From Alphaproteobacteria bacterium (GTDB lineage: Bacteria; Pseudomonadota; Alphaproteobacteria; CAAHEQ01; UBA3637), in assembly GCA_045660045.1 (NCBI GenBank), contig JAZRDB010000013.1:612-64611 (forward strand): a stretch of DNA of 64,000 bases, written 5' to 3'. Of the stretch, positions 10,342-32,935 are shown piece by piece. The translations under genes and the position numbers were made by a program. The notes under the pieces were generated by a model that was not told where the DNA came from, did no database searches, and saw only the letters and a list, made by a program, of their open reading frames with translations. How positions within the stretch are numbered: position 1 is the stretch's first letter; each line of letters begins with the position of its first letter.

Positions 10342-10350
10342 GGGCGCCTC

Positions 10351-11139: not shown

Positions 11140-11208
11140 AAAACACTCCTTAATTCTAAAGTTATTTTAAACACAAAAAAGAATGAAATGCAAGGATAAA
11201 ATCAGTTT

Positions 11209-12831: not shown

Positions 12832-12848
12832 TTGAAATCCCCTTTGTT

Positions 12849-13661: not shown

Positions 13662-13673
13662 TTTAATTTTCCT

Positions 13674-14216: not shown

Positions 14217-14305
14217 AAAAGGTCTTTTTGCAAGAGAAATTATTCATCCCCTCTTGCGTTTTTTGGGTGGGATGATTATATACATATGCAACAAAGGAGT
14301 TTGAT

Positions 14306-16129
14306 ATGACAAAATCTCAAAAAATTCAATTTAAGGCCGAAGTGGCAAAGGTATTGGACATTGTGATCCACAGCCTTTATTCCAATAAAGAAATCTTTTT
14401 GCGCGAATTGATTTCCAATGCATCGGATGCCTGTGATAAGTTGCGTTATGAACAAATGTTGCATCCAGAATTGGCTCAAAAAGACGGTTTCAAAATTATT
14501 GTTGAGCCAAACAAAAATACAAAAACTTTGACCGTGACGGACAATGGTATCGGTATGAATCATGACGATCTTGTCAATCATTTAGGCACGATTGCGCGGT
14601 CTGGTTCGGGCGAATTTATGAAAGCTCTTTCTGGCGACAAGCAAAAAGACATGGCTTTGATTGGTCAATTTGGTGTAGGTTTTTATGCCAGTTTTATGGT
14701 GGCTGATAAGGTGCAGGTGCGCACGCACAAAGCTGGCGAAGATGTGGGGTATTTATGGGAAAGCGATGGCGCGGGATCTTTCACGATTTCTGAAGATAAA
14801 GACGCCCCGCGTGGCACAAGTGTCATTTTGTATTTGAAAAAGGATGATGAGGAATTTTTGGATCCGTTCCGTTTGCGTCATTTGATTAAACAATACAGCG
14901 ATTTTGTCAGTTTGCCGATTGTTCTTAAAAACGAAAAAAGTGAAGATACGGTAAATGCAGGATCTGCTCTGTGGACTCGCCCAAAATCTGAGATCACCGA
15001 AACACAATACAAAGATTTTTATCAAACAGTGTCACATGCTTTTGACTCTCCTTGGGAAACTTTGCACTTTCATGCGGAAGGTGTGATTGATTACACAGGA
15101 CTCTTATTTATTCCAACCGAAGCGCCTATTAACTTGTTCCAACCAGACAGAAAATCGGGTTTAAATTTATATGTGAACAAGGTCTTTATTTCGGATGATG
15201 TGCCTGACTTGATGCCCTATTGGTTGCGCTTTGTGACGGGTGTGATTGACACCAAGGATTTGCCTTTGAATGTCAGCCGCGAGATGTTGCAACAAACACC
15301 GGTTATGACAAAAATTAAGCAAGGTTTAACCGCAAAAGTGTTGGCCGCTTTAAAGAAACGCGCAGAAAAAGCGGACGATTATAAAACGTTTTGGAAGGCA
15401 TTTGGCATTGTGTTAAAGGAAGGTTTGTATGAACCATCTGCCAACCGTGATGATGTGGCTGGACTTTGCCGTTTTTATTCTACAAACGGCGAAGAATTGA
15501 CTACCTTTGCGGACTATGTATCGCGGATGAAAAAGGGACAAGAAAACATCTATTATCTGACGGGTGCAGATTTGGCAACTTTGCGTCAAAATCCGCAATT
15601 GGAAGGTTTTGTGGCGCGAGGTATTGAAGTGTTGTTGTTGACCGACCCGATTGACGAATTTTGGACCAACACTTTCCCAGATTACAAAGGCAAAAAGTTT
15701 GTGGCTGTGCAACAAGCCGGCACCGAATTAGAAAAGATTGAAAAAGTGAAAAATGATGCAGAAGCGTTACCAAAAGGTAAATTGGACAAACTCATCGAAA
15801 AAATGAAAAAGATTTTGGGCGATGAAGTGAAAGATGTGCAATCCACTGATCGTCTGACAAAAAGTCCAATGTCATTGATTACAGGTGCGGGACAAATGAC
15901 CTTGAATATGGAACGCTTGATGCGCGCCCATGGACAACAAACGGCCTATGCATCCGATCGGATTTTGCAGGTTAATCCTTACCATCCATTGATTCATAAA
16001 ATGGCGGGAATGGACGACCCAACGGATTATGTGTTGGTGTTGTTTGACCAGACATTAGTCATCGAGGGCGAGCCCATTAAAGATCCTGCCCGCTGGACCG
16101 AAAAATTGATCACACTTTTGTTAAAATAA
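14306..16129 (+). CDS. htpG: Molecular chaperone Hsp90
   Basis: 607 aa with the GHKL ATPase N-terminal motifs (…LISNASDACDKLRY…, GIGM…) and the HtpG middle and C-terminal domains. Confidence 0.95.
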   Translation: MTKSQKIQFKAEVAKVLDIVIHSLYSNKEIFLRELISNASDACDKLRYEQMLHPELAQKDGFKIIVEPNKNTKTLTVTDNGIGMNHDDLVNHLGTIARSGSGEFMKALSGDKQKDMALIGQFGVGFYASFMVADKVQVRTHKAGEDVGYLWESDGAGSFTISEDKDAPRGTSVILYLKKDDEEFLDPFRLRHLIKQYSDFVSLPIVLKNEKSEDTVNAGSALWTRPKSEITETQYKDFYQTVSHAFDSPWETLHFHAEGVIDYTGLLFIPTEAPINLFQPDRKSGLNLYVNKVFISDDVPDLMPYWLRFVTGVIDTKDLPLNVSREMLQQTPVMTKIKQGLTAKVLAALKKRAEKADDYKTFWKAFGIVLKEGLYEPSANRDDVAGLCRFYSTNGEELTTFADYVSRMKKGQENIYYLTGADLATLRQNPQLEGFVARGIEVLLLTDPIDEFWTNTFPDYKGKKFVAVQQAGTELEKIEKVKNDAEALPKGKLDKLIEKMKKILGDEVKDVQSTDRLTKSPMSLITGAGQMTLNMERLMRAHGQQTAYASDRILQVNPYHPLIHKMAGMDDPTDYVLVLFDQTLVIEGEPIKDPARWTEKLITLLLK

Positions 16130-16187
16130 TTGTTGCGCTTCGGATCCTAATTTGGTATGCTGAATTTATCAAACAAGGAGGTGTTGC

Positions 16188-17528
16188 GTGCGTGTTCAAT
16201 TGTTGGCAAAATCAGATAAAAAACCACTTGATCTGGCTTCTCATGCAGCGCGCGTTTGTTACACCTTAAATCAAGAATTAATTGAAAAACCCATTGATGT
16301 GAAGGCACGATTGTTTGATTCGGGGCACCACACGACTTTGCAACACACAAATTTCACTTTTTATATTCAAGATGTGCCCGTGACGACCGTTTTGTTTGGA
16401 TTGCATTTAACAAGCCCTTATTATAATTCAGATCAACGGTCGGGGCGCTTTTCCAAAATGTATACGGAACCTGATTTTGAAATGATTCGGGGAATGTTGT
16501 CGCCTTTTTATAAAGCAGAAGACATTGATAAAGCCTTGCCATTTATTGAAACTGGGGCGGAAATTTATCGTGAGTGGTTGCCGAAAATTATCCCGTTGGC
16601 TGAAAAAGCCATTAAGGCCGAGCGACCTTTTGCAAGTGAAAAATATATTGAATTAAATGCTCCGAAACTAGCACAGGAGCAGTTGCGGATGTTTGTTTCT
16701 CAGGTAGTGTCGACGGCGTTGGATACGACATTGAATTTGTCTGCTTTGACGGCTTTGTGGCGCAGTGCTTGGACGCCAGAATTGCGTGCTTTGACGGATG
16801 CTATGCGGGATGCTGTGTTGGCGGAATATCCTGAATTAGAAGGATTTTTCAATCCTGAGGCTCGTCGTGATACGGACTGGTTTTTGCCGATTCAAGAAGG
16901 GACGGCCATTGTAGAGGACAAACCAGACCTGTTTCTAATCCATGCGGATTTAAGCGAAAATGTTTATACCAATGCAGGTAAGGACAGCGTAGATACCTTG
17001 TATTTCACACCGGAGGCCTTGGAAAATGATGTGCATTACGTGCATACGCGGGTGCAAGTTTCCTGTGCGACCTATGGTCAGGATCAACGTCATCGTTCTG
17101 TGCGGCGTTCCATGCCCCGTTTGACGACAAGTTTTTATTTGCCGCCCTTGTTGAAAGAGGCCGGAATGATGCCTGTTGCCATGAAATTTATGCAAGAATG
17201 GTTGGATTTAAAAGATCAAGTGCCGGCCGGTTTGATGCAGGCAATTACGCCTTATGGTGCAATGGTAAGCTATGATAAATTAGCCGATTTGAATGCCCTT
17301 GTTCATGAACAAGGCAAGCGGTCTTGTTGGTGTGCGCAAGAAGAAATTTATCACTTGTCTGTGGCTTTGCGCGAGGTATTGGAACAAATGCCTGAGGCCA
17401 AGACGTTGACTTCTGTATTAGCGCCACCATGTTTTGTTTGTGGAAAATGCCAAGAGGGAGCGCGTTATTGCGGCCGCGATATTAAGGGAACACCAAAGGA
17501 AAATTATTTTCCAAAGAGAAAGGTATAA
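16188..17528 (+). CDS. thyX: Flavin-dependent thymidylate synthase ThyX, long form with Cys-rich C-terminus
   Basis: 446 aa. ThyX-like segments HHTTLQHTNFTF and RHRSVRRS fit the RHRX7S motif. GTG start behind an AAGGAGG RBS. The C-terminal ~150 aa extension ends CFVCGKCQEGARYCGRD. Confidence 0.6.
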   Translation: MRVQLLAKSDKKPLDLASHAARVCYTLNQELIEKPIDVKARLFDSGHHTTLQHTNFTFYIQDVPVTTVLFGLHLTSPYYNSDQRSGRFSKMYTEPDFEMIRGMLSPFYKAEDIDKALPFIETGAEIYREWLPKIIPLAEKAIKAERPFASEKYIELNAPKLAQEQLRMFVSQVVSTALDTTLNLSALTALWRSAWTPELRALTDAMRDAVLAEYPELEGFFNPEARRDTDWFLPIQEGTAIVEDKPDLFLIHADLSENVYTNAGKDSVDTLYFTPEALENDVHYVHTRVQVSCATYGQDQRHRSVRRSMPRLTTSFYLPPLLKEAGMMPVAMKFMQEWLDLKDQVPAGLMQAITPYGAMVSYDKLADLNALVHEQGKRSCWCAQEEIYHLSVALREVLEQMPEAKTLTSVLAPPCFVCGKCQEGARYCGRDIKGTPKENYFPKRKV

Positions 17529-17530
17529 CC

Positions 17531-17559
17531 CTTGACTTTTGGGTAAAAATCAGGTATAA
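17531..17559 (+). promoter_or_regulatory. Consensus sigma70 promoter for tRNA-Ser (TTGACT-17-TATAAT)
   Basis: TTGACT at 17531-17536, a 17-nt spacer and TATAAT at 17554-17559, about 20 nt upstream of the tRNA 5' end. Confidence 0.7.
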
Positions 17560-17580
17560 TAACTCCGCTTTTCCAGATGT

Positions 17581-17671
17581 GGATGGGTGGCCGAGTGGTT
17601 GAAGGCGCGCGCCTGGAAAGTGCGTTTAGGTCTAAAGCCTAACGGAGGTTCGAATCCTCTCCCATCCGCCA
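17581..17671 (+). tRNA. tRNA-Ser (anticodon GGA)
   Basis: Acceptor stem GGATGGG/CCCATCC, a D-arm with the GCCGAGTGGTTGAAGGC typical of type II tRNAs, anticodon loop CTGGAAA, a long variable arm, T-arm GGTTCGAATCC and an encoded CCA. Confidence 0.9.
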
Positions 17672-17760
17672 TTTTTATTAGGGGTTGCACCTCTTTTGCA
17701 AGTTTTGGAACTGTAAGACTGCCCCAATTGGTTTATACCTTAATTTAGAGATAAGAAAAC

Positions 17761-18801
17761 ATGTTAAATACCGCATACAGATACATTGAAAATGAAAATA
17801 TTTTTCAGCTGCGCGGGTCTGTGTTGGCGAAAGCAACTTTTCAAAAAATGCTCCGGATGATTATTAAGACAAAACCTGGACGTGAATTAATTTGTCGCGT
17901 TGGAGAGGAATGTGAAAAGCGGGGGGTACCTGTTATTTTAGCGATGATGCATCGTGAAAAAAACAACTTAGGATATTGTGATCCAAGATTGATTATCAAA
18001 ATTGCGAATCCAAATCAAAAAGATTTGTCAAAAGCAAAAATCGAGCAAGCGACCTTTCAACAAACAATGACTTTGGCCCATGAATTAGGTCATGTGTTGC
18101 AGTTTTTAAAGAAAGAAGATCGTATCAATGCTTCATTGCCATTAAAAGAACGTTTTTATGCACAAGTTTGGATGGAAGCGGAAGCTGATTTATGGTTGCG
18201 AGATGTGGAAACAGAATTATCCAAAATTTATACTGGACTTTCAAAAAACATGAACTTATTGAAAACACGTTTCAAAAGCCGGAGCGATTTTGTGCGTTCT
18301 TTTTTTGTGAAGGGACGTAATTACGATTGGATGGGAAGTGGTGTAGAAGTTATCATATCCGAATTGATGAATGCACAACAGGTTATATTGCCGAATATGG
18401 CCAGTCATTTATACTTTCCAAAGTTAATGAATCAAAGATTTGAACGGATGCGTTTGCCGCTAAAATACAACGAAATGCCATTTGATAAATGTTTTTGGGT
18501 TGAAAAATTGCCAGAAGGCGTGAGTATGATTCGAACTGAAACAAAATATGCATTGGTGGCACCCAATGGATCATTGTTGTCCATTTGTGATCAAGAAACA
18601 AGTCCGGTAACGATAAAAAGTTTTGGAGAGCCACATCTTAAGCATTTATTTCGGGCGGGAAAAATAATGCCCATTTCCTCACGACGAACAACTAATCTTG
18701 AAGAATGTGATTATTTAACCGAAGAACCATTTAAATTGACGACACGTCAACTTAGTGCACTTGCGCGGCCGTTAGATCGTTTTGGCGGACGAGCGCCATA
18801 G
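17761..18801 (+). CDS. HExxH zinc-metallopeptidase-like protein (ImmA/IrrE-like motif)
   Basis: 346 aa containing MTLAHELGHVLQFL, an HEXXH motif in an ImmA/IrrE-like context. It lies immediately after the tRNA-Ser. Confidence 0.4.
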   Translation: MLNTAYRYIENENIFQLRGSVLAKATFQKMLRMIIKTKPGRELICRVGEECEKRGVPVILAMMHREKNNLGYCDPRLIIKIANPNQKDLSKAKIEQATFQQTMTLAHELGHVLQFLKKEDRINASLPLKERFYAQVWMEAEADLWLRDVETELSKIYTGLSKNMNLLKTRFKSRSDFVRSFFVKGRNYDWMGSGVEVIISELMNAQQVILPNMASHLYFPKLMNQRFERMRLPLKYNEMPFDKCFWVEKLPEGVSMIRTETKYALVAPNGSLLSICDQETSPVTIKSFGEPHLKHLFRAGKIMPISSRRTTNLEECDYLTEEPFKLTTRQLSALARPLDRFGGRAP

Positions 18802-18967
18802 CCATTTCACGAGATCCAGTTTGAGCCATACGTTCACCTTCCGGGCTGTAAATTGCCCAAACGAGCTCATTGTTTTGTGCTTCTTTTTTTATGTAGACGC
18901 GATCATCTTCGCCAACTTCCTCGGCGCAGAAAGTATCTTGAGTGGCAACAACAATCCGATCACTCAT
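18752..18967 (-). CDS. Small conserved protein, DUF1150-like (Hsp20-associated)
   Basis: 71 aa. It occupies the position of the small ORF usually found next to hsp20 in alphaproteobacteria. Assigned by context only. Confidence 0.35.
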   Translation of the reverse strand: MSDRIVVATQDTFCAEEVGEDDRVYIKKEAQNNELVWAIYSPEGERMAQTGSREMAMALVRQNDLTAAQVH

Positions 18968-18971
18968 TTGA

Positions 18972-19409
18972 TTATCCTTTCTTGTTTAAATGAACCGCTT
19001 TTGATTTCTTTTGAATCTCAATCCTTTTTATATTAGGACTTTTTTGTGGTTTTTGCAAGGTAATAATTAAAAGACCATTTTCCAAGACGGCACCTTTGAT
19101 TTGCATGCCATCGGCCAATACGAAAGATTTAATAAAAGATCTGGCTGCAATGCCTTGATGCAAATAATGGCGATTCGGATCATGTTCTTGACGACCACGA
19201 ACAATCAATTGATTATCTTCTTGTACAATATCTAAATCATCATCAGTATATCCAGCGACAGCCATTGTGATTTCAAAAGTAGTCGTATCCAATTGCTCGA
19301 CGTTGTAAGGCGGAAATGAATCGGCCCCCTTGGCGACTCGGAGTAACATTTGTTCCAATTCGTCAAACCCAACCAAAAAAGGATTGTTAAAGGGTGTTAA
19401 ATTAGGCAT
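18972..19409 (-). CDS. Small heat-shock protein, Hsp20/IbpA family
   Basis: 145 aa alpha-crystallin domain (…FEITMAVAGYTDDDLDIVQEDNQLIVRG…GLLIITL…). Confidence 0.85.
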   Translation of the reverse strand: MPNLTPFNNPFLVGFDELEQMLLRVAKGADSFPPYNVEQLDTTTFEITMAVAGYTDDDLDIVQEDNQLIVRGRQEHDPNRHYLHQGIAARSFIKSFVLADGMQIKGAVLENGLLIITLQKPQKSPNIKRIEIQKKSKAVHLNKKG

Positions 19410-20790
19410 TTTCTCCCGCTTTCAATTTTGTTGTGACTTCAGCAATTTGAGTGGCCAATTTTTTGTCTTGTTGGATTAAGCCTTCAATTGTGCGAACAGC
19501 ATGAATGACCGTTGTATGATCACGCTTGAAACACAAAGCAATATCTGGCAAAGAAAGAGGTGTCAATGTTTTTGTTAAGTACATAGCAATTTGACGAGGC
19601 CTGGCAAAAGCACGATCTCTGCGGGTGGATTGTAAATCATCCAATGAAATATTGTAATAATTTGCTACCATGCGTTGAATCTCGGGTGCTTTGACTGGGC
19701 GTTCATAGGTATGCAAAATGTCTTTCAGCACTTCTTGTGTGGTATTCATATTGATGGGATTACCAATCAATTCAGCATGTGCGATAACGCGCTTTAAGGC
19801 GCCTTCTAGTTCGCGTACGTTTGTGGTAATGCTTTTTGCCAAAAAGGCCAATACATCATCAGGGACAACAGCACCCATCTCTTTGTTCTTATCCTGCAAA
19901 ATGCCGAGGCGCAAATTTTCATCGGCAGGGGTAATATCTACAACTAAACCTTGTGAAATGCGCGTGCGCAACATATCATCGATGCTATGTAATTGAGCTG
20001 GCATAGCGTTGGCAGATAAAATAATCATTTTCTTTTCTGCAACCAATGCGTTAAAGGTATAGAAAAATTCTTTTTGTGTTTGGGTTTTGCCCAGAATGAA
20101 TTGAATGTCGTCTATCAATAAAACATCGGCAGAGCGAACCAAAGAACGGAAATTATCCATATTGTTTGTGTTGACATCATGTATAAAGCGTTGAAAAAAT
20201 TGTTCAGAGGATAAATATAGAACATTCTTTTCGGGGTGACGTTCTTTTATACGCCAAGCGATGGCATGCAACAGGTGCGTTTTGCCCAATCCAGAACCTG
20301 CATGAATATATAAAGGATTGAAGGAAATCGAATCGTCTTCGGCAATTTTTTTGGCGGCCGCATAGGCAAATTGATTTGATTTGCCCACGATAAAAGTATC
20401 AAAAGTATGGGCAGGATCCAAATAACAGGACATTTCTTCAACCGATTCGTTTTTCTCGGATGCTGTGTAGGACGCTTGTTGTGTTGGTTGAATAAGTTCA
20501 GTTTTAGGTAAAGAGGATTCCTGTACTTTTAAATCAGATTTCAATTTTAAATTGACAGTATTAATATTCGTATTTTTTGATTTCCACAAAGATTGAATTT
20601 TGTCTAAATAATTTTGTTCAATTAATTCATGGATGCAAGGGCTGGTAACTGTCAAATTCACTTGATCATTTTCAATACTGCTTGGAATTACTTTGCTGAG
20701 CCAACGCATAACAAACCGATCACGGAGGGTCTGTTCTAACTGTGTACAGATCTCGGCCCATTGTAGCTGCAATGTATTTGAGTTATCCAT
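19402..20790 (-). CDS. dnaA: Chromosomal replication initiator DnaA
   Basis: 462 aa with an AAA+ domain (Walker A GSGLGKTHLL, box VII) and a C-terminal DNA-binding domain (…TLPDIALCFKRDHTTVIHA…). Confidence 0.95.
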   Translation of the reverse strand: MDNSNTLQLQWAEICTQLEQTLRDRFVMRWLSKVIPSSIENDQVNLTVTSPCIHELIEQNYLDKIQSLWKSKNTNINTVNLKLKSDLKVQESSLPKTELIQPTQQASYTASEKNESVEEMSCYLDPAHTFDTFIVGKSNQFAYAAAKKIAEDDSISFNPLYIHAGSGLGKTHLLHAIAWRIKERHPEKNVLYLSSEQFFQRFIHDVNTNNMDNFRSLVRSADVLLIDDIQFILGKTQTQKEFFYTFNALVAEKKMIILSANAMPAQLHSIDDMLRTRISQGLVVDITPADENLRLGILQDKNKEMGAVVPDDVLAFLAKSITTNVRELEGALKRVIAHAELIGNPINMNTTQEVLKDILHTYERPVKAPEIQRMVANYYNISLDDLQSTRRDRAFARPRQIAMYLTKTLTPLSLPDIALCFKRDHTTVIHAVRTIEGLIQQDKKLATQIAEVTTKLKAGENA

Positions 20791-20825
20791 CTTTTTTCAC
20801 CCCTTCATAAGATTTTGTGATTTTC

Positions 20826-20834
20826 TTATCCACA
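20826..20834. promoter_or_regulatory. Consensus DnaA box TTATCCACA in the dnaA upstream region
   Basis: An exact 9-mer lies 36 bp upstream of the dnaA start codon and is followed by an AT-rich tract (20850-20900). Confidence 0.6.
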
Positions 20835-20914
20835 AGCATACGGGTATTTTTTTAAAAAACAACAGAAAATTTTAATAATTTGTTAAATATTTTGCTTGAC
20901 ACTAAATATAGGTT

Positions 20915-21415
20915 TTAGCACCCCAAGATGTTGTGGCTAGATAGACCTAAGAAGCCATGGGTAAGGGCTATCGCAAGGGCGTCAGCAGCATCGGGTGGCA
21001 TTCCTTCGGGGACTGTCTTTAATAAAGTACGTACCATCATATCTACTTGATTCTTTTCGGCGTGTCCTACACCCGTGATTGTTTTTTTGATTTGATTTGG
21101 CGTGTATTCGCCAACTTCTAGTCCAAACAAGGCAGGTGTCATTAAAACGACGCCACGTGCTTGTCCTAACTTTAAAGTTGAAGAAGGATTTTTATTAACA
21201 AAGGTTTCTTCCACCGCGGCGGTGTCTGGTTTCCATTGTTCTATCAAGGCTTTTAACGATTCGTGTAGTTCAGTTAACCGATTCGCAAGCGGCAATTTTT
21301 CATCGGGATTGATGACGCCAGCTGCCACAAAAACAAAATGGGCGCCCTGTTTATCAACAAGACCCCATCCCGTGTGTCGTAATCCCGGATCCAACCCCAA
21401 AATCCGCATGGACAT
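20915..21415 (-). CDS. ruvC: Holliday junction resolvase RuvC
   Basis: 166 aa RNase H-like fold (MSMRILGLDPGLRHTGWGLV…). Confidence 0.9.
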   Translation of the reverse strand: MSMRILGLDPGLRHTGWGLVDKQGAHFVFVAAGVINPDEKLPLANRLTELHESLKALIEQWKPDTAAVEETFVNKNPSSTLKLGQARGVVLMTPALFGLEVGEYTPNQIKKTITGVGHAEKNQVDMMVRTLLKTVPEGMPPDAADALAIALTHGFLGLSSHNILGC

Positions 21416-21427
21416 TCTCCCCTTTTA

Positions 21428-22168
21428 TTAAAGCTGAGCCAAAATATCCTCGGCAATATCAGCGTTCGTGATCACGCGTTGCACGTCATCATCTTCATTC
21501 AAATCTTCCACAAAGCTCATCAATTTTTGAGCGGTTTCCAAATCGGTAATTGGTGTTTCCACTGTTGGTTTCCAATCGATTCGAGCCACATTTGGTGTGC
21601 CCAATTTGCTTTCAAGAGCATCCCGCACAGCACCCAAATCTTCTGGTTTACAGGTGATTTCGTGAGCTGTTTCTGTTGTTTGAACGTCGTCTGCACCCGC
21701 ATTCAAAGCTTCTTCAAACATGGCATCTGCAGTAGCAACAGCCAAAGGAAATTCCAAATAACCAATTTTTTCAAAGTTAAATAAAACTGTATCGCCAAAG
21801 GATCCGCCGCGTTTTGTGAATAAAGCCCGTAAGTTTGGTGCTGTTCTGGCGCGGTTGTCGGTTAACGCTTCCACAATAATAGCCACATGTCCGGGGCCGT
21901 ATCCTTCATAGCGTACCTCTTCATAGTTGCTTGTGTCGGCGCTTTGGCTACCTTTTGCAATAGCGCGTTCAATGTTGTCTTTTGGCATATTTTCACTGCG
22001 TGCATTTTGGATGGCCAAACGCAAACGAGGGTTGCTGTTTGGATCGGCACCACCCGTTTTAACGGCAACTGTAATTTCACGAGCGCATTTGGAAAAAACG
22101 CGCGCACGGGCTTTATCTTGAGCGCCTTTGCGGTTCATAATGTTTTTGAATTGTGAATGTCCTGACAT
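21428..22168 (-). CDS. yebC: YebC/PmpR family DNA-binding transcriptional regulator
   Basis: 246 aa beginning MSGHSQFKNIMNRKGAQDKARARVFSK…, the canonical YebC N-terminus. Confidence 0.9.
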   Translation of the reverse strand: MSGHSQFKNIMNRKGAQDKARARVFSKCAREITVAVKTGGADPNSNPRLRLAIQNARSENMPKDNIERAIAKGSQSADTSNYEEVRYEGYGPGHVAIIVEALTDNRARTAPNLRALFTKRGGSFGDTVLFNFEKIGYLEFPLAVATADAMFEEALNAGADDVQTTETAHEITCKPEDLGAVRDALESKLGTPNVARIDWKPTVETPITDLETAQKLMSFVEDLNEDDDVQRVITNADIAEDILAQL

Positions 22169-22200
22169 GTTTTTCCTTTCGTTTGAATAAGGTCATTATA

Positions 22201-23013
22201 TCATATTTTTATTGTATTTTCAAGGGTATCACCCAAAATGATGGGACGAATCGATTTTGCCTTAAAAGTTTTATTATCAATTTCTACGATAATGGCAGAC
22301 AATGTAGATGTTTCTTTGGCCGGTTCGAATCGCATCCGTTCTGTACCCAGACCAAAATGTGAAAAGGCGGTTTCTTTCGTCATACCAAGAACGGAAGTAT
22401 AATCTCCACACATCCCAACATCGGTCATATAAGCCGTTCCATTTGGCAAAAGATGCGCATCCATTGTGGGAATATGTGTGTGTGTTCCAACAACCAAAGC
22501 AGCTTTGCCATCCAAAAAATAACCCATGGCCACTTTTTCGGCAGTTGTTTCCGCATGATAATCCAAAATCAAAACATCATATTCTTTTTGATGTTCGTCA
22601 ATAAAAGATTGAATTGTTTGAAATGGATCGGCCAATTCCAGTTTGCAGTTCATGAATGCTTTGCCCAAAATTTGAACCACGCAAACGCGAATATTGTTAA
22701 TGGTAAAAATGTGGAAACCTTTGCCGGCGGTATCTTGGGGATAGTTTAAAGGGCGCACCAAAATATTGTCATTTTGCCAAATTTGTGTGATATCCATTTT
22801 GTCAAAAGTATGATTGCCCATTGTCATAACATCAACGCCAACACGTAATAATTCTTGATATGTTTTGGGCGTTAATCCCAAACCGTGAGCTGCGTTTTCA
22901 GCATTTAATATGACGGCATCTAAATGATATTTTTCTTTTAATTTTGGCACATATGTTTTGACGGCTTTTCGGCCTGACTCCCCCGAAATATCGCCACAAA
23001 ACAAAATTTTCAT
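22201..23013 (-). CDS. YmdB-like metallophosphoesterase (TIGR00282 family)
   Basis: 270 aa with calcineurin-like phosphoesterase motifs (…DAVILNAENAAHG…, …MGNH…). Confidence 0.75.
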   Translation of the reverse strand: MKILFCGDISGESGRKAVKTYVPKLKEKYHLDAVILNAENAAHGLGLTPKTYQELLRVGVDVMTMGNHTFDKMDITQIWQNDNILVRPLNYPQDTAGKGFHIFTINNIRVCVVQILGKAFMNCKLELADPFQTIQSFIDEHQKEYDVLILDYHAETTAEKVAMGYFLDGKAALVVGTHTHIPTMDAHLLPNGTAYMTDVGMCGDYTSVLGMTKETAFSHFGLGTERMRFEPAKETSTLSAIIVEIDNKTFKAKSIRPIILGDTLENTIKI

Positions 23014-23318
23014 TGTTCCAAACTTTCTGCTAATACGCCAACTTTAAGTGCTAAATTTTGAATGCTTTGTGCAATTTGATCTGTTGTTTGTTCTAACATT
23101 TGAGCGTTCGTTGCACGTTCTAAATTATGCTTTTCCTCGGCCAACAGAAGGCAAATCATGGCCAATAACTGTCCTTCCTTCATATAGCCAATGGATTTAG
23201 TTAAAGCTTCTGCTTTTTTATCCAATTGTTCGGCCAATTCACGCATATGCGCTTCTTGTCCATCGTTGCAAGAGAACTTATAAAAATTTCCGCCAATTTT
23301 CAACGATACAACGGCCAT
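23010..23318 (-). CDS. zapA: Cell division protein ZapA
   Basis: 102 aa starting MAVVSLKIGGNFYKFSCNDGQE…, the ZapA pattern, with a coiled-coil C-terminus. Confidence 0.7.
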   Translation of the reverse strand: MAVVSLKIGGNFYKFSCNDGQEAHMRELAEQLDKKAEALTKSIGYMKEGQLLAMICLLLAEEKHNLERATNAQMLEQTTDQIAQSIQNLALKVGVLAESLEQ

Positions 23319-24608: not shown

Positions 24609-26396
24609 ATGACAGATTTATCGCATATTCGTAATTTTTCTATTGTGGCACATATTGATCATGGTAAATCCACTTTGGCGGATCGTCTGATTCAAAAATG
24701 TGGAGCTGTCTCTGATCGTGAAATGAAAGCTCAGATTTTGGACAATATGGATATTGAACGTGAGCGAGGGATTACCATCAAAGCACAAACCGTGCGCTTG
24801 AAATACGGCGATTATATTTTGAATTTAATTGACACACCAGGGCATGTGGATTTTGGTTATGAGGTCAGTCGTTCTTTGCATGCTTGTGAAGGGTCATTAT
24901 TAGTGGTGGATGCCACTCAAGGTGTGGAGGCACAAACTCTGGCCAATGTGTATAAAGCATTGGACGCGAATCATGAAATTGTGCCTGTGATTAACAAAAT
25001 TGATTTACCAGCTGCCGATCCAGACAGAGTCAAAAAACAAATTGAGGATGTGATTGGATTGGATACAACGGGGGCGCCCCTTATTTCTGCCAAAACGGGC
25101 ATTGGCATCGATGAAGTTTTGGACGCAATTGTGAAGCGGTTGCCGGCACCGATAGGGGATGTAAATGCACCATTAAAAGCCATGTTGGTGGATTCGTGGT
25201 TTGATCCATATTTAGGCATTGTGGTGATGGTGCGTGTGGTGGATGGCGCCTTAAGGAAAAATGATCAGATTCAATTTATGTCTACGGGCGCTTGTTATAA
25301 GGTGGAACGACTTGGTTATTTCACGCCTAAAATGCAAGATTCGGACAGTATCACTGCTGGTGAATTGGGCTTTGTGATTTGCGGTGTGAAAACAATTGGC
25401 GAAACAAAAGTTGGTGATACGATTACACACGAAAAAAATCCGTGCAAGGAAGCTTTACCAGGATTTAAGCCAAGCCAAAGTGTGGTGTTCTGTTCTATGT
25501 TCCCTGTGGATATGAGCGATTACGAGGCGTTAAAAGAGGCGATTGGTAAATTGCAATTAAATGATGCTAGTTTCCAATTTACGCCTGATAAATCTATGGC
25601 ATTGGGCCAAGGTTTCCGTTGTGGTTTCTTGGGGCTATTACACATGGAAATTATTCAAGAGCGTTTATCCCGTGAGTTTAATTTGGATTTAATTACAACC
25701 GCGCCATCTGTGGCGTATAAGGTCTATAAGACAAATGGGGAAATGTTGGTGATGCATAATCCCGCCGATATGCCAGATGTGACGACCATTTCCAAGATTG
25801 AAGAGCCATGGGTAAAAGCGACGATTTTAACGCCAGATGAATATTTGGGCAGTATTTTACAGCTTTGCACAGAACGTCGTGGCGAGCAATTGGATTTGAC
25901 CTATGTTGGCAATCGTGCGATGGCGGTATATCGCCTGCCTTTAAATGAAATTGTGTTTGATTTTTATGATCGCCTAAAATCCATTTCGCGTGGGTATGCC
26001 AGCTTTGATTACGAGGTGGATGATTATCGTGCCTCTGATTTGGTGCGTGTGAATATTTTGGTGCATGGAGAGCAAGTGGATGCGTTGGCTTTCCTTGTTC
26101 ACAGATCACAGGCGGAACGCCGTGGGCGGCAAATCTGCGCGCGACTGAAAGACCTGATTCCTCGTCATCAATTCAAGATTCCAATTCAGGCCAGTATTGG
26201 TGGTAAAATTATTGCCCGTGAAGATATTTCCGCTTACCGAAAAGATGTGACGGCCAAATGTTATGGTGGTGATATTACGCGTAAGCGCAAACTGCTTGAA
26301 AAACAAAAAGAGGGCAAAAAGCGCATGCGTCAATTTGGAGAAGTAGAGATTCCACAAAATGCCTTTATTGAAGCCCTTAAAATTGGGGAAGAATAA
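24609..26396 (+). CDS. lepA: Elongation factor 4 (LepA)
   Basis: 595 aa translational GTPase ([27 protein letters not shown]) with the LepA-specific C-terminal domain. Confidence 0.95.
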
Positions 26397-26869
26397 TGCA
26401 TTTATTTTATAACTATGCGCCAAAGGAAGCAGACGTGTTAAATACAGGCCTTTTGTCGCCGGTTAGGGCGCCGCGTTTGGCTCTGGCACATTATTTTGGG
26501 CGTGCACAAACGAACACAAAAAAAGGGGTCTTGGCATATTTAGAAACAGTTTTTCCTGGACGTAGCTGTGCAATTTCTTTCTTGACCAGCCCCATGACCG
26601 AAAAATGCTGCTTTTATAATGACTTTAAAAAGGATCGTGTTCTATACAGCATTGATTTTGATAAGTTGCAAAAAGCCGGTTTAATTAAAGCCATTTATCG
26701 TGTTGTGGGAAAACCCTGTACAAAGATTACAGCTGATCAAATTTTGTGGGATGAAAAATTACCGTGGGAAAAAGTTGGCAAAGGATTGATCTTTAGTAAA
26801 ATTCCCCATTATATGGTGGTGTTAAAAGATGGTTTCGTGCCACCCGAATTTGTTATACAATGCCGTTAA
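26396..26869 (+). CDS. Hypothetical protein
   Basis: 157 aa ORF whose start overlaps the lepA stop. No recognisable motifs. Confidence 0.35.
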   Translation: MHLFYNYAPKEADVLNTGLLSPVRAPRLALAHYFGRAQTNTKKGVLAYLETVFPGRSCAISFLTSPMTEKCCFYNDFKKDRVLYSIDFDKLQKAGLIKAIYRVVGKPCTKITADQILWDEKLPWEKVGKGLIFSKIPHYMVVLKDGFVPPEFVIQCR

Positions 26870-27714: not shown

Positions 27715-28605
27715 TTATTCCTTCTTTTCAATAATGGAGCGGCGCATAGCTTCGGCCAATAAACGGCGAGAAAGTACGTCTAATTGCTCCATTTCCATTT
27801 GTGTTTTTAACTGTTCTTTAGATGGCATAACCTGTTGAGATCGCACGTTACACTTCATCATTACAAGAACGCCATTTGGGGAACGTAATGGTCCCACTGT
27901 TTCTCCTACTGCAATATCTTTTAAAAGTTCGCGCAATTCAGGTGGCATTTGGCCTGGATCTGTCCAACCGCGCTGAGCGGATTCTGGATAGGGGCCAATT
28001 TTGATATGTTCCAAAAAAGCATCGCAATCTTTTGATTCCAGGGTGGTAGACACGTCTACATCTTCGGAGAACACACCTTGAGCCATTTCCCAGAGGGTAA
28101 GGTTGTCGCCTTCTATTCCTTGTTTCTTGAGTTCATTTTTCATTGCTTGATAGCGTTTGTTGACAGCCAAATTTGAGATGTTGATGTTTTGGCCCTTACT
28201 GTGCAAATATTGCAACCACAAAAGATCGGATTCTAGCTGTGCGTGTAAAGCTTTTTCTGAAACATTATTTTTCTTTAATACATTAGATAATGAGCCTGCG
28301 GGTAAATCATTTTGTTGTTCCAAATGCGCCTTTGCACGATTGATTTCTTGTTCGGATATTTTTAAGCCGGCAGCGGTGGCTGTTTGTTTCTTAACTGCAG
28401 ATTCAATAATAGCTTCCAATGCCTCTTTGTTTAGCTTGGCATTGGACATAGTCCCATATTTGGTGGGTTGTTGAAATTTAAGCAACTGTGCCCAATGATG
28501 CACATCTAAATCAGAAATAGGATTATCATTCACTGTTGCTTTTAATTCCATGCATAAAGCAGGCAGTGTATGCAACATCAATATAATCAAAAACAGGTAT
28601 CTCAC
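27715..28605 (-). CDS. surA: SurA-like periplasmic chaperone / peptidyl-prolyl isomerase
   Basis: 296 aa with a signal peptide and a SurA N-terminal-like domain. It sits directly downstream of lptD, the conserved lptD-surA order. Confidence 0.55.
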   Translation of the reverse strand: MRYLFLIILMLHTLPALCMELKATVNDNPISDLDVHHWAQLLKFQQPTKYGTMSNAKLNKEALEAIIESAVKKQTATAAGLKISEQEINRAKAHLEQQNDLPAGSLSNVLKKNNVSEKALHAQLESDLLWLQYLHSKGQNINISNLAVNKRYQAMKNELKKQGIEGDNLTLWEMAQGVFSEDVDVSTTLESKDCDAFLEHIKIGPYPESAQRGWTDPGQMPPELRELLKDIAVGETVGPLRSPNGVLVMMKCNVRSQQVMPSKEQLKTQMEMEQLDVLSRRLLAEAMRRSIIEKKE

Positions 28606-31600
28606 TGGCCAATCCCTCCTAATGTTTTCAAAAAGATTTTAAACATAAATGACGTACTACCTTTATAGTTTCTATCTCTGGCGTATGATTTATCCAGGTC
28701 AAAAATCAATGCAGTGCATTCATTATCATAGCGCAATTGAATTCCATATTCAATAGGTCCGCCTTCCTTTTTCAAATTATATCGATAATTTCCCGAAATT
28801 TGCCAGTTTTTTGAAAGCTTAGAATTGGCCCAAAAACGAATTTCATTTTCTTCACGATAATGTTTATTGTCCAATTCATAGGATCCTTGGTACAAATAAT
28901 TGAGGCCGACTCTGAATGGATTTGCGCCAACAGATACGCCAATATCATTGCGACGCTTGGCAAGATTTTCGCGATTTAAACGGAAACGATAAGTAAAAGA
29001 CAAATATTGATAATTCATATGAATGCGACCGATATAATCGGATAAGTGATTGCTATATCCCATGACGTCACTCATTTCTTCTGTATCATGGAAACGATAT
29101 GTTTGTCCCAACAACAAGGACAAAGAACGATTTTGTGCAGAGTTATGATAAGCCGTCCATTGAAAACCATAGTTCAGGCGAGAGCCCGTTTCTACACGAT
29201 CATAGCCCGCAAATCGGTTTTCTGAAAAAAGATTGGTATCATCAAAGTCAAAAATCGTACTGTCAATATTGGGAATATCTGTTGAGTTTTTTGTATTTGG
29301 TGACAATACCAGCATGATAATGGGTTCTAAAATTTGTGTGGTCGACTCTGTTTGCATGGCTAATGGATAACTTACTTTTGTGCTGGCCACAGAATAAAAA
29401 CGTCCCTTATTATAGGTGTCTTCATTGTGTTTGGAGATAAGGGTGCGCTTGCCCGTATTTAACGCATATCCATCCAAACGGACGCTGGCATTTGTATCGG
29501 TGACAAGACCAAACGGTGTAATATAGGGTAACGAAAGCCCCTGGGTTAAAGAAATACGATCGGACTTAAAATTTTCACGGGTATTATATATGGCGCCATT
29601 TACCTTTGTGAAGGCAAAAAGAGGTGTATCGGCAATAGGAGCCGTATTATATGCCATGTCTAAAGTAGGAATGACGACAGGGATCGATTTGGAACTGATA
29701 CCATTGACCAAACTTTGAAAATGCCATGCTTTGGCACGTGTGTAAAAACGTGTGCCAAAATATTCACCTGTTAAATGAGACTGCAAAAAGGACTCTGAAT
29801 CGTTGATGCCTTCGATACCATAACGGCGGAAATAGGTGTCACTGAGTGTTCGAAAATATTGTCCCGTTAAACGGATTTTATTTGTGATATCGTATTCGAA
29901 ATTTGTTTTGATGTGCCCCTCATTTTTGCTTTTATCATCTTGTGTGCCGCTGAGTTGTAACTTGACGGCGCCGCGAGTAAAACGAGCATTATAATCAATC
30001 ATGCCTAAAGGAACATGCCTAGATGACCAAATAGGTGCCAGTAAAAGATTTTGATTGTCCGCTAAATTGATAAAGAAAGGAGTTTCAATCGAAAAACCCA
30101 TTTCGCGGCTATGTTGAAAGCTTGGATATAATAATCCAGTTTTGCGTTTGATGGTTAAATCTGGTATTTGAAAATAGGGAAAATAAAGAATGGGAACATC
30201 TTGAATATCAAAAAACATGTGAGTAAAAGATATTGTATGATCTGAAAAATCTTGCGTTACCTTTTTTGCGTCTATTTTCCATAAAGGTGCCTCATCTTCG
30301 CACATGTTGCACGGGGTGTAAGAAGCATTTTGAAGGACGATTAAATGGCCGTTTTTTGTGGTAACCATGTGATTTGCGCCCAAATAGGTGCCGTCCGTGA
30401 ACTGTCCCGTTAATGTATTGGCTTTAGCTTCGGATCTACGAGGATATAAAACCATGTTTTGAACTGTTGATCTGGTGCCATCTGGCAATTTTAGTTTAAC
30501 GGTTTGGGGAATTGTGACTTCATCTTTTCCCTTGTTGTATAAAATGCGGTCGGTCTTCATCTGAATATTGTTTTGTGTTAATGTCACATCACCGGATGCT
30601 GTTAAAATCCCCGTTTTGATGTTATAATTCATATTATCAGCTTCAAACTGAATGGGTTGGTTTTTTGTTGCATCCACTTCTTTAAGATCGAGCTTGGGCA
30701 TGGCGTGTGTTGGCATGGTAAAACTTAATGAAATTAATATCGCCAGATGAATCCATCCTATCCGTTTTTCTTTGAATAAAACAAGGTAAAGCACAACCAA
30801 GGGAATAAACAAATTGGCAGCCATAAGACCTAGTCCCCACAAATTGCGCACGGCGATGTTTTCAAATGCAAGAGAAAAGGATTGAATTAATAGCGCCGCT
30901 ATGATGACGGCATTAATTTGTTTTGATTGTCCACGTCGGTTATAAAATCCACGTAAGGTACCAAAGGCAGCCAACCACAAGAAAACTAAATTATACAGGG
31001 GCTGAGTTAGACGTTTAAAGGCTTCTACTTTATATTTTCTGTAGATTAAACCATTGACTTCTTTGGGAGTGGTAGATAATAATTGTTTGAGTGATATTTC
31101 GTCTGGGTTAGGTTTTCGAGGTGATGTTCCTTGTTTGTCGATAAAAGGTATGGTATATTTATCAAATTTAAGCACAGAAAATTGGTGTGAGTTGGGTTGA
31201 AATTCTTGTCGTGTTCCTTTGTTGAAGGTTAAACTAATACCGTCTGGAGTTTGAAGCATTGTGCCTTCTTCTGCAATTAGGACAGATCGTTTGTCTTGTT
31301 TGAGTTCATAAACCAAAATATCTTTTACTTTACCTAATTCTTCTCGTTCTTTAATATACAGGGTTACACCATTTTTTAAAGAATTAAACTGTCCCTCTTG
31401 TACTAATAAATGCGACAAATTATTTCGAATTTTCCATCTCATTTCTCTGAGATGTGAATAAGATGTGGGGATAATCCATAGTGTTAAGAGGTAACCAAAG
31501 AAAACTAAAAATATTCCTAACATCAATAAAGGACGGGCCAATTGTTTGCTGCTCATCCCGACAGCCTTCAAGACAATCAATTCTTTATCTGATTGCATAC

Positions 31601-31835
31601 GAATAAAAACAAATAGTGAGACGCCAAACAAGGCAAGTGGGGATAAAATTTGTAAAAAATTAGGTAAAACCAACAGGGTCATTTCAAGGAAGATACCAAC
31701 CGATGCGCCCTTTGTAATGATCCAGTCAATCATTCGAAGGGATTGTGTAAGCCAAATCAAGATAATGAGGCTGATAAGAATTGCCATAAACCCAAGCAAT
31801 GTTTGGCGAAAAATATATTTCTCAATTATTTTCAT
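28602..31835 (-). CDS. lptD: In-frame fusion ORF: LptG-like permease (N-terminal ~370 aa) + LptD/OstA outer-membrane LPS assembly protein (C-terminal ~707 aa)
   Basis: 1077 aa continuous ORF. The N-terminus matches the YjgP/YjgQ (LptF/G) permease family. From about nt 30725 downwards the protein carries an LptD-like signal-peptide segment (…LAILISLSFTMPTHA|MPKLDLKEV…) followed by OstA N-terminal and β-barrel regions. No stop codon separates the two parts. Confidence 0.75.
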   Translation of the reverse strand: MKIIEKYIFRQTLLGFMAILISLIILIWLTQSLRMIDWIITKGASVGIFLEMTLLVLPNFLQILSPLALFGVSLFVFIRMQSDKELIVLKAVGMSSKQLARPLLMLGIFLVFFGYLLTLWIIPTSYSHLREMRWKIRNNLSHLLVQEGQFNSLKNGVTLYIKEREELGKVKDILVYELKQDKRSVLIAEEGTMLQTPDGISLTFNKGTRQEFQPNSHQFSVLKFDKYTIPFIDKQGTSPRKPNPDEISLKQLLSTTPKEVNGLIYRKYKVEAFKRLTQPLYNLVFLWLAAFGTLRGFYNRRGQSKQINAVIIAALLIQSFSLAFENIAVRNLWGLGLMAANLFIPLVVLYLVLFKEKRIGWIHLAILISLSFTMPTHAMPKLDLKEVDATKNQPIQFEADNMNYNIKTGILTASGDVTLTQNNIQMKTDRILYNKGKDEVTIPQTVKLKLPDGTRSTVQNMVLYPRRSEAKANTLTGQFTDGTYLGANHMVTTKNGHLIVLQNASYTPCNMCEDEAPLWKIDAKKVTQDFSDHTISFTHMFFDIQDVPILYFPYFQIPDLTIKRKTGLLYPSFQHSREMGFSIETPFFINLADNQNLLLAPIWSSRHVPLGMIDYNARFTRGAVKLQLSGTQDDKSKNEGHIKTNFEYDITNKIRLTGQYFRTLSDTYFRRYGIEGINDSESFLQSHLTGEYFGTRFYTRAKAWHFQSLVNGISSKSIPVVIPTLDMAYNTAPIADTPLFAFTKVNGAIYNTRENFKSDRISLTQGLSLPYITPFGLVTDTNASVRLDGYALNTGKRTLISKHNEDTYNKGRFYSVASTKVSYPLAMQTESTTQILEPIIMLVLSPNTKNSTDIPNIDSTIFDFDDTNLFSENRFAGYDRVETGSRLNYGFQWTAYHNSAQNRSLSLLLGQTYRFHDTEEMSDVMGYSNHLSDYIGRIHMNYQYLSFTYRFRLNRENLAKRRNDIGVSVGANPFRVGLNYLYQGSYELDNKHYREENEIRFWANSKLSKNWQISGNYRYNLKKEGGPIEYGIQLRYDNECTALIFDLDKSYARDRNYKGSTSFMFKIFLKTLGGIGQ

Positions 31836-32732
31836 TTATTTTTCCTTTCGAGTATTATACGCCAAAGGATGAGATTTTTCAATGACCTTTTTTAATCTGT
31901 TGGGCAAAATGTGTGTATAAATTTCTGTGGTGGCGATGTCGGCATGTCCAAGAAGCTTTTGAACAGAGCGCAAATCTGCATCATGAGCAATCATGTGAGA
32001 GGCAAAAGAATGACGGAAAACGTGCGGTGAAACTTTTGCTGGATCTAATCCGATATTTAGTGCTAATTTTTTTAACTCCTTGAAAAATGTGCCACGCGTT
32101 AAATGTCCAGATTTTGATTTTGCGGGAAATAACCATTTGTTTTTGTCGGCACGCGGGCAAGTTTTTTCACGTTCTTGCAACCATTTTTCGATGGATTCAC
32201 AAGCCATGTCATTTAAAGGAACAATGCGTTCTTTGTTTCCTTTGCCCGTGACAAAAATATGTTTTTTTTCGCGCACAACTGCATCCATGGGAAGACCGAC
32301 CAATTCGCTGACCCGCATGCCAGAGGCGTATAAAACCTCCAACAAAGTGTGCAAGCGTATAGTATCTGCATTTTGAATTAGAGAAAAAATGTCATCTTCG
32401 CTTAGATACTTGGGGAGAGATTTTTGTGCTTTTGGGGCGTCCAAATAATCGGTTGGATTTTGTTTAATGATGTTTTCTGAATAAAGAAAACGATAAAATT
32501 CACGCATGCTAGACAAGCGGCGACTTTGTGTTTTGAGCGAATAACTATGGTTTGTTAAAAATGCTAAATAATTGCGCAGGTCTTGATTCGTTACGTGGAT
32601 TAAGTCGGTGTTCAGCGTTTTTAGAAAGTTTTCCAGCGCCTGTAAATCACGTTGATAAGCGGCCACCGTGTTGGATGATGCCCCACGTTCTGCAATTTGC
32701 ATTTCTAAAAAAGCATCAATGGCCGAAGACAT
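31836..32732 (-). CDS. xerD: Tyrosine site-specific recombinase XerD/XerC family
   Basis: 298 aa with the C-terminal catalytic motifs HVFRHSFASHM and LLGHADIATTEIYTH. The XerD versus XerC assignment is tentative. Confidence 0.6.
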   Translation of the reverse strand: MSSAIDAFLEMQIAERGASSNTVAAYQRDLQALENFLKTLNTDLIHVTNQDLRNYLAFLTNHSYSLKTQSRRLSSMREFYRFLYSENIIKQNPTDYLDAPKAQKSLPKYLSEDDIFSLIQNADTIRLHTLLEVLYASGMRVSELVGLPMDAVVREKKHIFVTGKGNKERIVPLNDMACESIEKWLQEREKTCPRADKNKWLFPAKSKSGHLTRGTFFKELKKLALNIGLDPAKVSPHVFRHSFASHMIAHDADLRSVQKLLGHADIATTEIYTHILPNRLKKVIEKSHPLAYNTRKEK

Positions 32733-32935
32733 GAAAGTTTCTTATTCCTTTGTGTAAGTAATGGTCACTTGTTGCGATGTGGTTTTGGGCGCGCAATCGC
32801 ACAGAGCAAAAAATAAGACAACCCCGATAATCGCAATCACAACAATTTTTGTAATTAAATGTCTGCGTTTTTCATAATACTTCATTTTCTTTCCTTTCCC
32901 TAGACAAATGATGAAATTTATGGTATAAGTGTAGC

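Follow-up and report, generated by a model that had tools for sequence, protein, structure and literature searches.

How can a permease of the inner membrane and the lipopolysaccharide (LPS) translocon of the outer membrane share one reading frame? The question is raised by a 64,000-nucleotide stretch of contig JAZRDB010000013.1 (assembly GCA_045660045.1, Alphaproteobacteria bacterium), hereafter referred to as the window. Here, a single uninterrupted open reading frame (ORF) of 1077 codons plus stop, starting with ATG at position 31835 of the minus strand, encodes a YjgP/YjgQ-type permease followed by LptD. The initial annotation had described such an ORF without an intervening stop codon, and this was borne out by the ORF list, the Pfam analysis and the presence of the quoted junction; its coordinates (28602–31835) were right, while the strand had been left unstated. 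Our analysis indicates that the gene, designated lptF::lptD, is most probably a genuine, retained fusion encoding a two-protein precursor, which signal peptidase I would cut into a seven-helix LptF and a mature LptD.

Pfam analysis of the 1077-aa protein assigned aa 6–352 to LptF_LptG (PF03739; 223.7 bits, profile positions 1–351 of 353), aa 398–484 to LptD_N, an OstA/LptA-like β-jellyroll (PF03968; 25.2 bits against a cut-off of 20.4 bits), and aa 650–1011 to the C-terminal β-barrel of LptD (PF04453; 159.4 bits, profile positions 14–384 of 384).

Judged by profile scores and structural matches, the N-terminal module is LptF and not the paralogue LptG, as which it had initially been annotated. 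With TIGR04407, the NCBIfam equivalog of LptF, a score of 234.7 bits was obtained over profile positions 1–345 of 347, which exceeds the 230-bit cut-off by a narrow margin; the family members P0121 (231.4 bits) and P0122 (233.3 bits) likewise cleared it. The LptG model TIGR04408 gave 94.3 bits on the same module, against a cut-off of 240 bits. Among PDB entries, LptF chains were matched at E ~5e-21 and LptG chains at ~4e-7. In a control locus of classical gene order (L036), the first gene was recognised as LptF at 242 bits and the second as LptG at 275.6 bits, and in all relatives where lptF adjoins lptD, the gene directly upstream of lptD scored best as LptF. The scores, the chain matches and the control locus together ruled out an LptG identity of the module. 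The lptG-lptD-surA adjacency to which the fusion had been related is inapplicable, the permease being LptF and lptG being absent from the locus.

The C-terminal module was matched by LptD chains of the PDB at E-values from 4e-21 to 1e-11. The cut-off of the NCBIfam LptD equivalog NF002997 was not reached (140.9 bits against 683 bits), and the distant LptD orthologues within the fused family (P0121, P0122) likewise stayed far below it. NF002997 is presumably built on enterobacterial LptD, and the shortfall, in our view, does not speak against an LptD identity.

A search of 5.8 billion protein clusters with the window protein as query returned at least 120 clusters of 1062–1096 aa that cover 98–100% of the query at 46–91% identity, all of them carrying both PF03739 and PF04453. 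They stem from independent ENA, NCBI, Logan and JGI assemblies, and the source annotations name the fused proteins either 'LptF' or 'LptD'. A locus scan with one genome per species revealed a single stop-free ORF of 1076–1100 codons in about 35 genomes (38–70% identity to the query; GC content 0.32–0.48). All of these are labelled uncultured Alphaproteobacteria, with isolate names referring to gut compartments of yak, goat, sheep, roe deer and water buffalo, to rabbit and to the Hadza human gut. Because the architecture recurs in this many independent clusters and species-level genomes, the fusion is not the product of chance or error. In an exhaustive library clustered at 50% identity, the family was reduced to fragments and three full-length representatives, with 50, 41 and 38% identity, and it thus constitutes one moderately deep clade and not a widespread architecture.

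Two irregular members were noticed in this survey. One more cluster match is a shortened protein of 880 aa (P0023); in the goat-abomasum metagenome-assembled genome (MAG) concerned (L004), a frameshift at ~12637–12643, inside the LptD barrel region, breaks the fused ORF, which is either an assembly error or a pseudogene. On contig CAZXTR010000002.1 (L030), LptD and a surA-sized ORF of the fused clade are found in a MAG labelled 'uncultured Lactobacillales bacterium', a label that is probably due to binning contamination.

The junction between the two modules was analysed in 121 family members by rule- and alignment-based motif scoring. In the window protein, the frame passes from L353 and F354 through K355–R358 (KEKR), the core from I359 to F372 and the stretch TMPTHA (to A378) into M379, P, K, L and D (window 30779–30699). 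The junction, HLAILISLSFTMPTHA/MPKLDLKE, where the slash marks the predicted cut, is encoded by window 30773–30702; the cut is predicted between A378 (30704–30702) and M379 (30701–30699) and would leave a mature LptD of 699 residues.

Across the family, the sequence of this linker is essentially unconserved and its length varies by insertions and deletions, which always preserve the frame. The net charge of the n-region is positive in 121/121 members, with values of +2 or more in 119 and +4 as the median, and the best 11-residue Kyte-Doolittle mean is 1.84 or higher in all 121 (median 2.63). In the column of Ala378 (P-1), Ala is present in 111 members and Ser in 6, as compared with a background of 5.4% Ala. 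At P-3, Ala (68), Val (19), Ser (18) and Thr (10) account for 115/121 residues, the remaining six being Pro. Bulky residues of several kinds (Q, Y, F, M, H, W) occupy P-2, Ser, Pro, Thr and Ala are frequent at P-4 and P-5, and Pro at P+1 occurs in none of the 121. The uncharged h- and c-regions, counted from the last charged residue up to P-1, together measure 15–23 residues in 108 members, and the FEAD-type motif that opens the LptD jellyroll follows 14–18 residues past the site in 116. Comparable, real N-terminal signal peptides are found on unfused LptD proteins: MKKIFAFLSMIFVGGAFA/TE (L042), MKKALAFLSMLFAATVHA/LP (L043) and MNRWIIFFTLAMIPFAPHA/EQ (L055).

Small residues at P-1 and P-3, the absence of Pro at P+1, a basic n-region, a hydrophobic h-region and a polar c-region, all of which the junction shows, are the signature of a signal peptidase I substrate. 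On these motifs, the junction has all the marks of a Sec signal peptide except its position, and it appears to be kept by selection, because the cleavage positions are conserved in an otherwise unconserved linker. As to position, the segment starts at residue 355, after a complete LptF module and without a conserved start codon, and is not a classical N-terminal signal peptide. A membrane anchor or a passive linker is unlikely, because neither would have reason to keep those positions at 38–91% overall divergence. The conservation of both the frame and a canonical signal peptidase I motif throughout the family supports the suggestion of the initial annotation that the fusion may be genuine and cut internally at the signal peptide.

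The fusion had also been regarded as topologically odd, which does not hold for LptF. In the solved LptB2FG structures, examples of which were among the PDB matches, LptF has six transmembrane (TM) helices and both ends in the cytoplasm. An AlphaFold2 (AF2) model built from a 41-sequence alignment showed helices at aa 2–42, 46–82, 96–137, 262–294, 304–330 and 334–353, and strands at aa 157–232, corresponding to the jellyroll between TM3 and TM4. Since the chain is cytoplasmic after TM6, the next hydrophobic segment must cross with its N-terminus inside and its C-terminus outside (N-in/C-out), as a signal peptide does, and this crossing places the Ala-x-Ala site at the periplasmic face, where signal peptidase I acts. 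The KEKR stretch following TM6 obeys the positive-inside rule. From the established LptF topology and the helix count of the model, we conclude that the fusion is topologically compatible. The LptD part was modelled as an all-β fold (aa 396–1069; confidence score, pLDDT, mostly 75–94, mean 78), and pLDDT fell below 50 for aa 360–392 at the junction; two confident modules with a low-confidence junction would be expected of a signal peptide, not of a structural element.

To find out if LptD could be translated from within the fused gene, 32 fused genes were scanned for start codons in a 15-codon window over the n-region, with random windows in the same genes serving as background. An in-frame ATG, GTG or TTG with a Shine-Dalgarno (SD) duplex of -4.4 kcal/mol or stronger was observed in 4/32 genes versus 3.6 expected, and with CTG, ATT, ATC and ATA also allowed, in 10/32 versus 6.7 expected. 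The real lptF starts, by comparison, showed an SD duplex of -4.8 kcal/mol or stronger in 25/32. Any in-frame ATG, GTG or TTG was missing from the scanned stretch in 11/32 loci. In the window ORF, the stretch from aa 349 to the hydrophobic core contains neither an in-frame NTG nor a scored SD-like motif; in the family alignment, no conserved Met was found anywhere in the n-region. An internal start with ribosome-binding site was accordingly rejected as not enriched over the within-gene background. The initial annotation had offered a lost stop codon with lptD translated from an unseen internal start, which is at odds with these counts and with the ancestral Met codon now being ATA. Programmed frameshifting at the junction was also considered and rejected: inspection by eye revealed no in-frame X_XXY_YYZ slippery heptamer in the window junction, and the linker is unconserved.

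Related loci fall into three classes. The classical order lptF-lptG-lptD, spanning ~4.4 kb, is found in L036, L037, L039, L048, L049, L059, L066, L068, L072, L075 and others; two adjacent ORFs, lptF and then lptD with no lptG between, occur in L035, L038, Haematospirillum (L040, L041), L042, L043, L045, L047 and L055; the third class is fused. In a neighbour-joining (NJ) tree of concatenated LptF and LptD, all fused loci formed one clade in 100/100 bootstraps, with L035 and L038 as sister in 96/100. When three distant fusions were added, the core clade was still recovered in 100/100 and its grouping with L035 and L038 in only 37/100, so that the sister relationship is less secure than the monophyly of the fused clade.

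In both L035 and L038, the TGA of lptF overlaps the ATG of lptD as ATGA, a 4-nt stop/start overlap joining two ORFs in different frames. Their LptD proteins begin with MIRTVWFLLLLFFAGTARA/AD..PVDFSAD and MIRLILTIALLLCSETALA/ID..PVDFSAD, respectively, the MIR start lying at the ATG of the overlap. These signal peptides align with the fused junction in the basic LptF tail, the old Met position, the hydrophobic core, Ala-x-Ala and the FEAD motif. The column of the old start Met still holds Met in a few close members (P0002, P0020, P0022) and mostly Ile, Leu or Ala; in the window, the codon is ATA. Going by these sequences, a one-base frameshift at the ATGA overlap is enough to create the fusion, which would have arisen once, from such an overlapping lptF-lptD pair, in the ancestor of this gut/rumen alphaproteobacterial clade. 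Since the unfused sister lineages likewise have no lptG there, lptG would have left the locus before the fusion.

The three distant LptF::LptD proteins were obtained in the exhaustive search: P0126 (1103 aa), P0144 (1175 aa) and the truncated P0154, each a single cluster representative known at the protein level only, with 27–30% identity to the window protein. Their junctions are signal-peptide-like, for example KPAKVKKLVGVLSCFLCFIFCFEAGA/KP and KWRIVAIVAAVTLALAAGKSAKA/AQ…PLDFSAD. The NJ analysis placed them among unfused lineages, with groupings to the core in 13/100, 0/100 and 0/100 bootstraps, respectively. This placement suggests more than one origin of the fusion, and the three are probably independent events, although parsimony hardly favours repeated fusion over repeated fission.

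The following course of events is proposed for the window protein. Translation would start at the lptF ATG (31835), and the six TM helices of LptF would enter the inner membrane co-translationally, after which the end of the chain is left on the cytoplasmic side. What was once the signal peptide of LptD (aa 355–378, consisting of KEKR, the 14-residue core and TMPTHA) would then insert N-in/C-out as a seventh helix and initiate Sec-dependent export of the ~700-residue LptD part. Cleavage by signal peptidase I after Ala378 would leave the old signal peptide on LptF as a C-terminal TM7 and free mature LptD on the periplasmic side; SurA, whose gene comes next downstream, and the β-barrel assembly machinery (BAM) would then convey it to the outer membrane. 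All that follows translation is inferred, from the cleavage to the passage via Sec, SurA and BAM, and so is any selective advantage. The fusion would be tolerated because its topology is compatible, and a possible benefit is the obligatory 1:1 co-synthesis of LptF and LptD at the same site.

Several points weigh against this processed precursor. Cleavage is predicted from a sequence motif, and this Ala-x-Ala motif might be an undecayed relic, which is unlikely given the 38–91% divergence and the otherwise unconserved linker. The AF2 model contains only a 9-residue helix (aa 361–369) at the junction and no packed TM7, but because the junction is modelled at low confidence, the model is silent on TM7 packing. 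Plausible internal starts, in the form of NTG codons with SD-like motifs in the n-region, exist in L011, L018, L020 and L028, and in L019, a TTG with an SD of -10.1 kcal/mol lies just upstream of the scored stretch. Judging from these codons, some members may also make LptD separately, which is not a property of the family. To suppose that this is the main route, the stop having been lost while LptD is still mostly produced on its own from an internal, possibly non-canonical start and the read-through fusion is minor or irrelevant, is very unlikely to be correct. The window ATA at the position of the ancestral start would suit it, ATA being allowed as a rare initiator by translation table 11; the start counts given above and the absence of NTG or SD from this part of the window gene speak against it, and ribosomes on lptF would read through and make the fusion anyway.

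An uncleaved single chain is quite unlikely as well. The junction helix would then be a stable seventh TM anchor, with LptF in the inner and the LptD barrel in the outer membrane, so that both ends of the LPS bridge are tethered. The frame is uninterrupted and conserved, the hydrophobic segment could span a bilayer in some members (h- and c-regions of up to 23 residues), and cleavage is deduced from a motif, all of which a tether would accommodate. A pure anchor, however, needs none of the only features that the linker conserves, namely Ala at P-1 (92%), a small P-3 (95%), P-4 and P-5 rich in Ser, Pro and Thr, and a Pro-free P+1. The site and the first jellyroll strand are also only 14–18 residues apart in 116/121 members, which, given the width of the periplasm, would hardly allow the barrel to reach the outer membrane. 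In the unfused sister taxa, the homologous segment serves as a normal N-terminal signal peptide. The chance is negligible that the lptF stop codon was lost in this genome alone, be it through faulty sequencing or assembly or through a recent pseudogenising mutation. A single indel at an ATGA overlap would yield such a fusion, and the related MAG L004 (P0023) does have a frameshift elsewhere in the gene; the comparative data nonetheless refute an error or a pseudogene, which the initial annotation had entertained, by way of the same ORF in at least 120 clusters from independent assemblies and about 35 species-level genomes at 38–70% identity, the monophyly of the fused loci and linker indels that always keep the frame. 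The initial annotation had also proposed comparing the junction in relatives; there, the fused class has the same uninterrupted ORF, and the genes are separate, with ATGA overlap, in L035 and L038 at 31–33% identity to the window protein.

LptF works as a heterodimer with LptG, together with two LptB subunits. Searched by tblastn with the LptF domain and with eight genuine LptG proteins, the window and 77 loci yielded no lptG, neither in the 64 kb of the window nor up to 10 kb from a fused locus (L001–L034, L044, L054 and L061, ±10 kb). The LptF module was the only match apart from weak ones at 10234–10527 and 13547–13615, which fall in mlaE and mipZ. The adjacency of lptF and lptD without lptG is also seen in unfused sister lineages, including the cultured Haematospirillum (L040, L041), and the default expectation is that lptG lies elsewhere in the genomes of the fused clade, where it needs looking for. 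The region at 19–23 kb of the window, considered as a place for other Lpt genes, encodes Hsp20, DnaA, RuvC, YebC, YmdB and ZapA. It is unlikely that the junction stays wholly or partly uncleaved, giving one polypeptide across both membranes with the LPS extractor hard-wired to the translocon, and/or that LptG has been lost and LptF forms a homodimer. In the case of a homodimer, the retained seventh helix would become a functional part of the transporter, for example in place of the LptC anchor helix, and interest in the system would rise if cleavage does not occur or LptG proves absent.

Coordinates of lptF::lptD, its predicted parts and the directly adjoining genes in the window
Feature	Coordinates	Strand	Basis
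Complete lptF::lptD fused ORF	28602..31835	-	ORF list, domains, at least 120 full-length homologues of 1062–1096 aa
LptF module, aa 1–354; six TM helices and periplasmic β-jellyroll (aa ~157–232) between TM3 and TM4	30774..31835	-	TIGR04407, PF03739, PDB matches, AF2
n-region of the putative internal signal peptide, aa 355–358 (KEKR), cytoplasmic side after TM6	30762..30773	-	Direct sequence reading; charge conserved in family
Codon ATA (Ile359), aligned with the lptD start Met of unfused relatives	30759..30761	-	Sequence and alignment
h-region, aa 359–372 (IGWIHLAILISLSF), hydrophobic core, predicted N-in/C-out crossing	30720..30761	-	Hydropathy
c-region, aa 373–378 (TMPTHA), predicted signal peptidase I cut after Ala378 (THA/MP)	30702..30719	-	Alignment columns
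Predicted mature LptD, aa 379–1077; short N-terminal tail, LptD_N β-jellyroll (~396–530), C-terminal β-barrel (~534–1070)	28605..30701	-	Pfam, PDB, AF2
xerD-type tyrosine recombinase gene, stop abuts lptF ATG	31836..32732	-	Phage_integrase and SAM-like domains
surA-like periplasmic chaperone gene, GTG start overlaps fused ORF stop by 4 nt	27715..28605	-	SurA_N domains

The surroundings of the fused gene are similar from locus to locus. In the inspected fused loci, the fused gene starts where an ORF of ~300–330 aa ends, and its own end is overlapped by a surA-sized ORF. On two further contigs (L078, L079), independent gene calls gave the order CNNM, aroK, a 47-aa ORF, xerD, lptF::lptD, surA and folD, with the same Pfam families at the xerD position. 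With 296 aa, the product of the surA-like gene in the window is short; its SurA_N matches are weak, its single peptidyl-prolyl isomerase (PPIase) match is marginal, and most other fused loci have an ORF of ~400 aa at this position. It looks like a shortened chaperone of this sub-lineage.

The 47-aa ORF (MKYYEKRRHLITKIVVIAIIGVVLFFALCDCAPKTTSQQVTITYTKE) is flanked by aroK and xerD and has the same orientation as xerD-lptF::lptD, at ~32742–32885 (minus strand) in the window. It is kept at 8947–9090 in L078 and 2477–2620 in L079, and also in L001, L002, L003, L022 and L028. In its product, a basic N-terminus is combined with a single hydrophobic helix, and a [C/Y]-D-[C/F]-x-P motif is conserved; there was no significant Pfam match (best E-value 0.016, below the cut-off). 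From these features, the product could be either a lipoprotein or a single-pass membrane peptide, of small size in both cases.

The gene dnaA (19402–20790, minus strand) is located about 8 kb away from lptF::lptD. Its surroundings (8219–23318) include hsp20, ruvC, yebC, ymdB and zapA nearby and radA, mlaF, mlaE, pgm, mipZ and htpG further along. The window may be close to the chromosomal replication origin. The ORFs at 26396–26869 (plus strand; 157 aa) and 13674–14216 (minus strand; 180 aa) gave no Pfam match at E ≤ 0.001; the former follows directly after lepA, its start overlapping the lepA stop.

To our knowledge, Lpt components have been described as separate polypeptides that must meet across two membranes, and there is no agreement on what sets their stoichiometry and co-localisation. 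One reading frame for LptF and LptD enforces 1:1 synthesis at one insertion site, which makes the fused lineage a ready-made system for asking whether coupled biogenesis helps bridge assembly. If processed, the protein would be a rare bacterial polyprotein cut at an internal signal peptide, and we know of no other such polyprotein with a BAM-dependent outer-membrane protein as its second product. In practical terms, pipelines that count Lpt components score one as missing, because the fused genes are annotated as LptF or LptD alone. Full-text literature searches returned no description of an LptF-LptD fusion; the Lpt components and the likely processing chemistry are already known, and the fused arrangement appears to be new.

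With the canonical Lpt system, that is, the lptF-lptG operon and lptD-surA of E. coli or the alphaproteobacterial order lptF-lptG-lptD-surA as in L036, the fused locus shares the families, the domains and the downstream surA, and canonical LptD likewise carries a Sec signal peptide with an Ala-x-Ala site. Unlike the canonical system, the locus is without lptG, there is neither stop nor start codon between lptF and lptD, and the LptD signal peptide is internal, following a polytopic domain of 354 residues. Unlike canonical LptF, the fused LptF would keep this signal peptide as an extra C-terminal TM helix after the predicted cleavage. The unfused sisters L035 ('Alphaproteobacteria bacterium UBA2903') and L038 (HGM16788) have the same order xerD-lptF-lptD-surA with no lptG between and a homologous signal peptide, but there, LptD is translated from an ATG of its own, presumably by translational coupling to lptF.

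The closest parallel to the proposed processing of which we are aware is FbcH of Bradyrhizobium japonicum, the cytochrome b/cytochrome c1 precursor, which was reportedly found by Thöny-Meyer et al., in about 1989–1991, to be processed at an internal signal peptide, the cleavage being shown experimentally. One ORF is said to encode a polytopic inner-membrane protein that ends in the cytoplasm, an internal signal sequence and an exported second subunit, giving two mature proteins of one complex. By analogy, lptF::lptD would follow the same pattern, with one ORF for two subunits of one machine and a cytoplasm-ending polytopic module ahead of an internal signal sequence. The two differ in their protein families and in the destination of their products, since both FbcH products stay at the inner membrane, whereas LptD goes to the outer membrane as a BAM-assembled barrel; and where cleavage of FbcH is reportedly an experimental result, that of lptF::lptD is deduced from its conserved junction.

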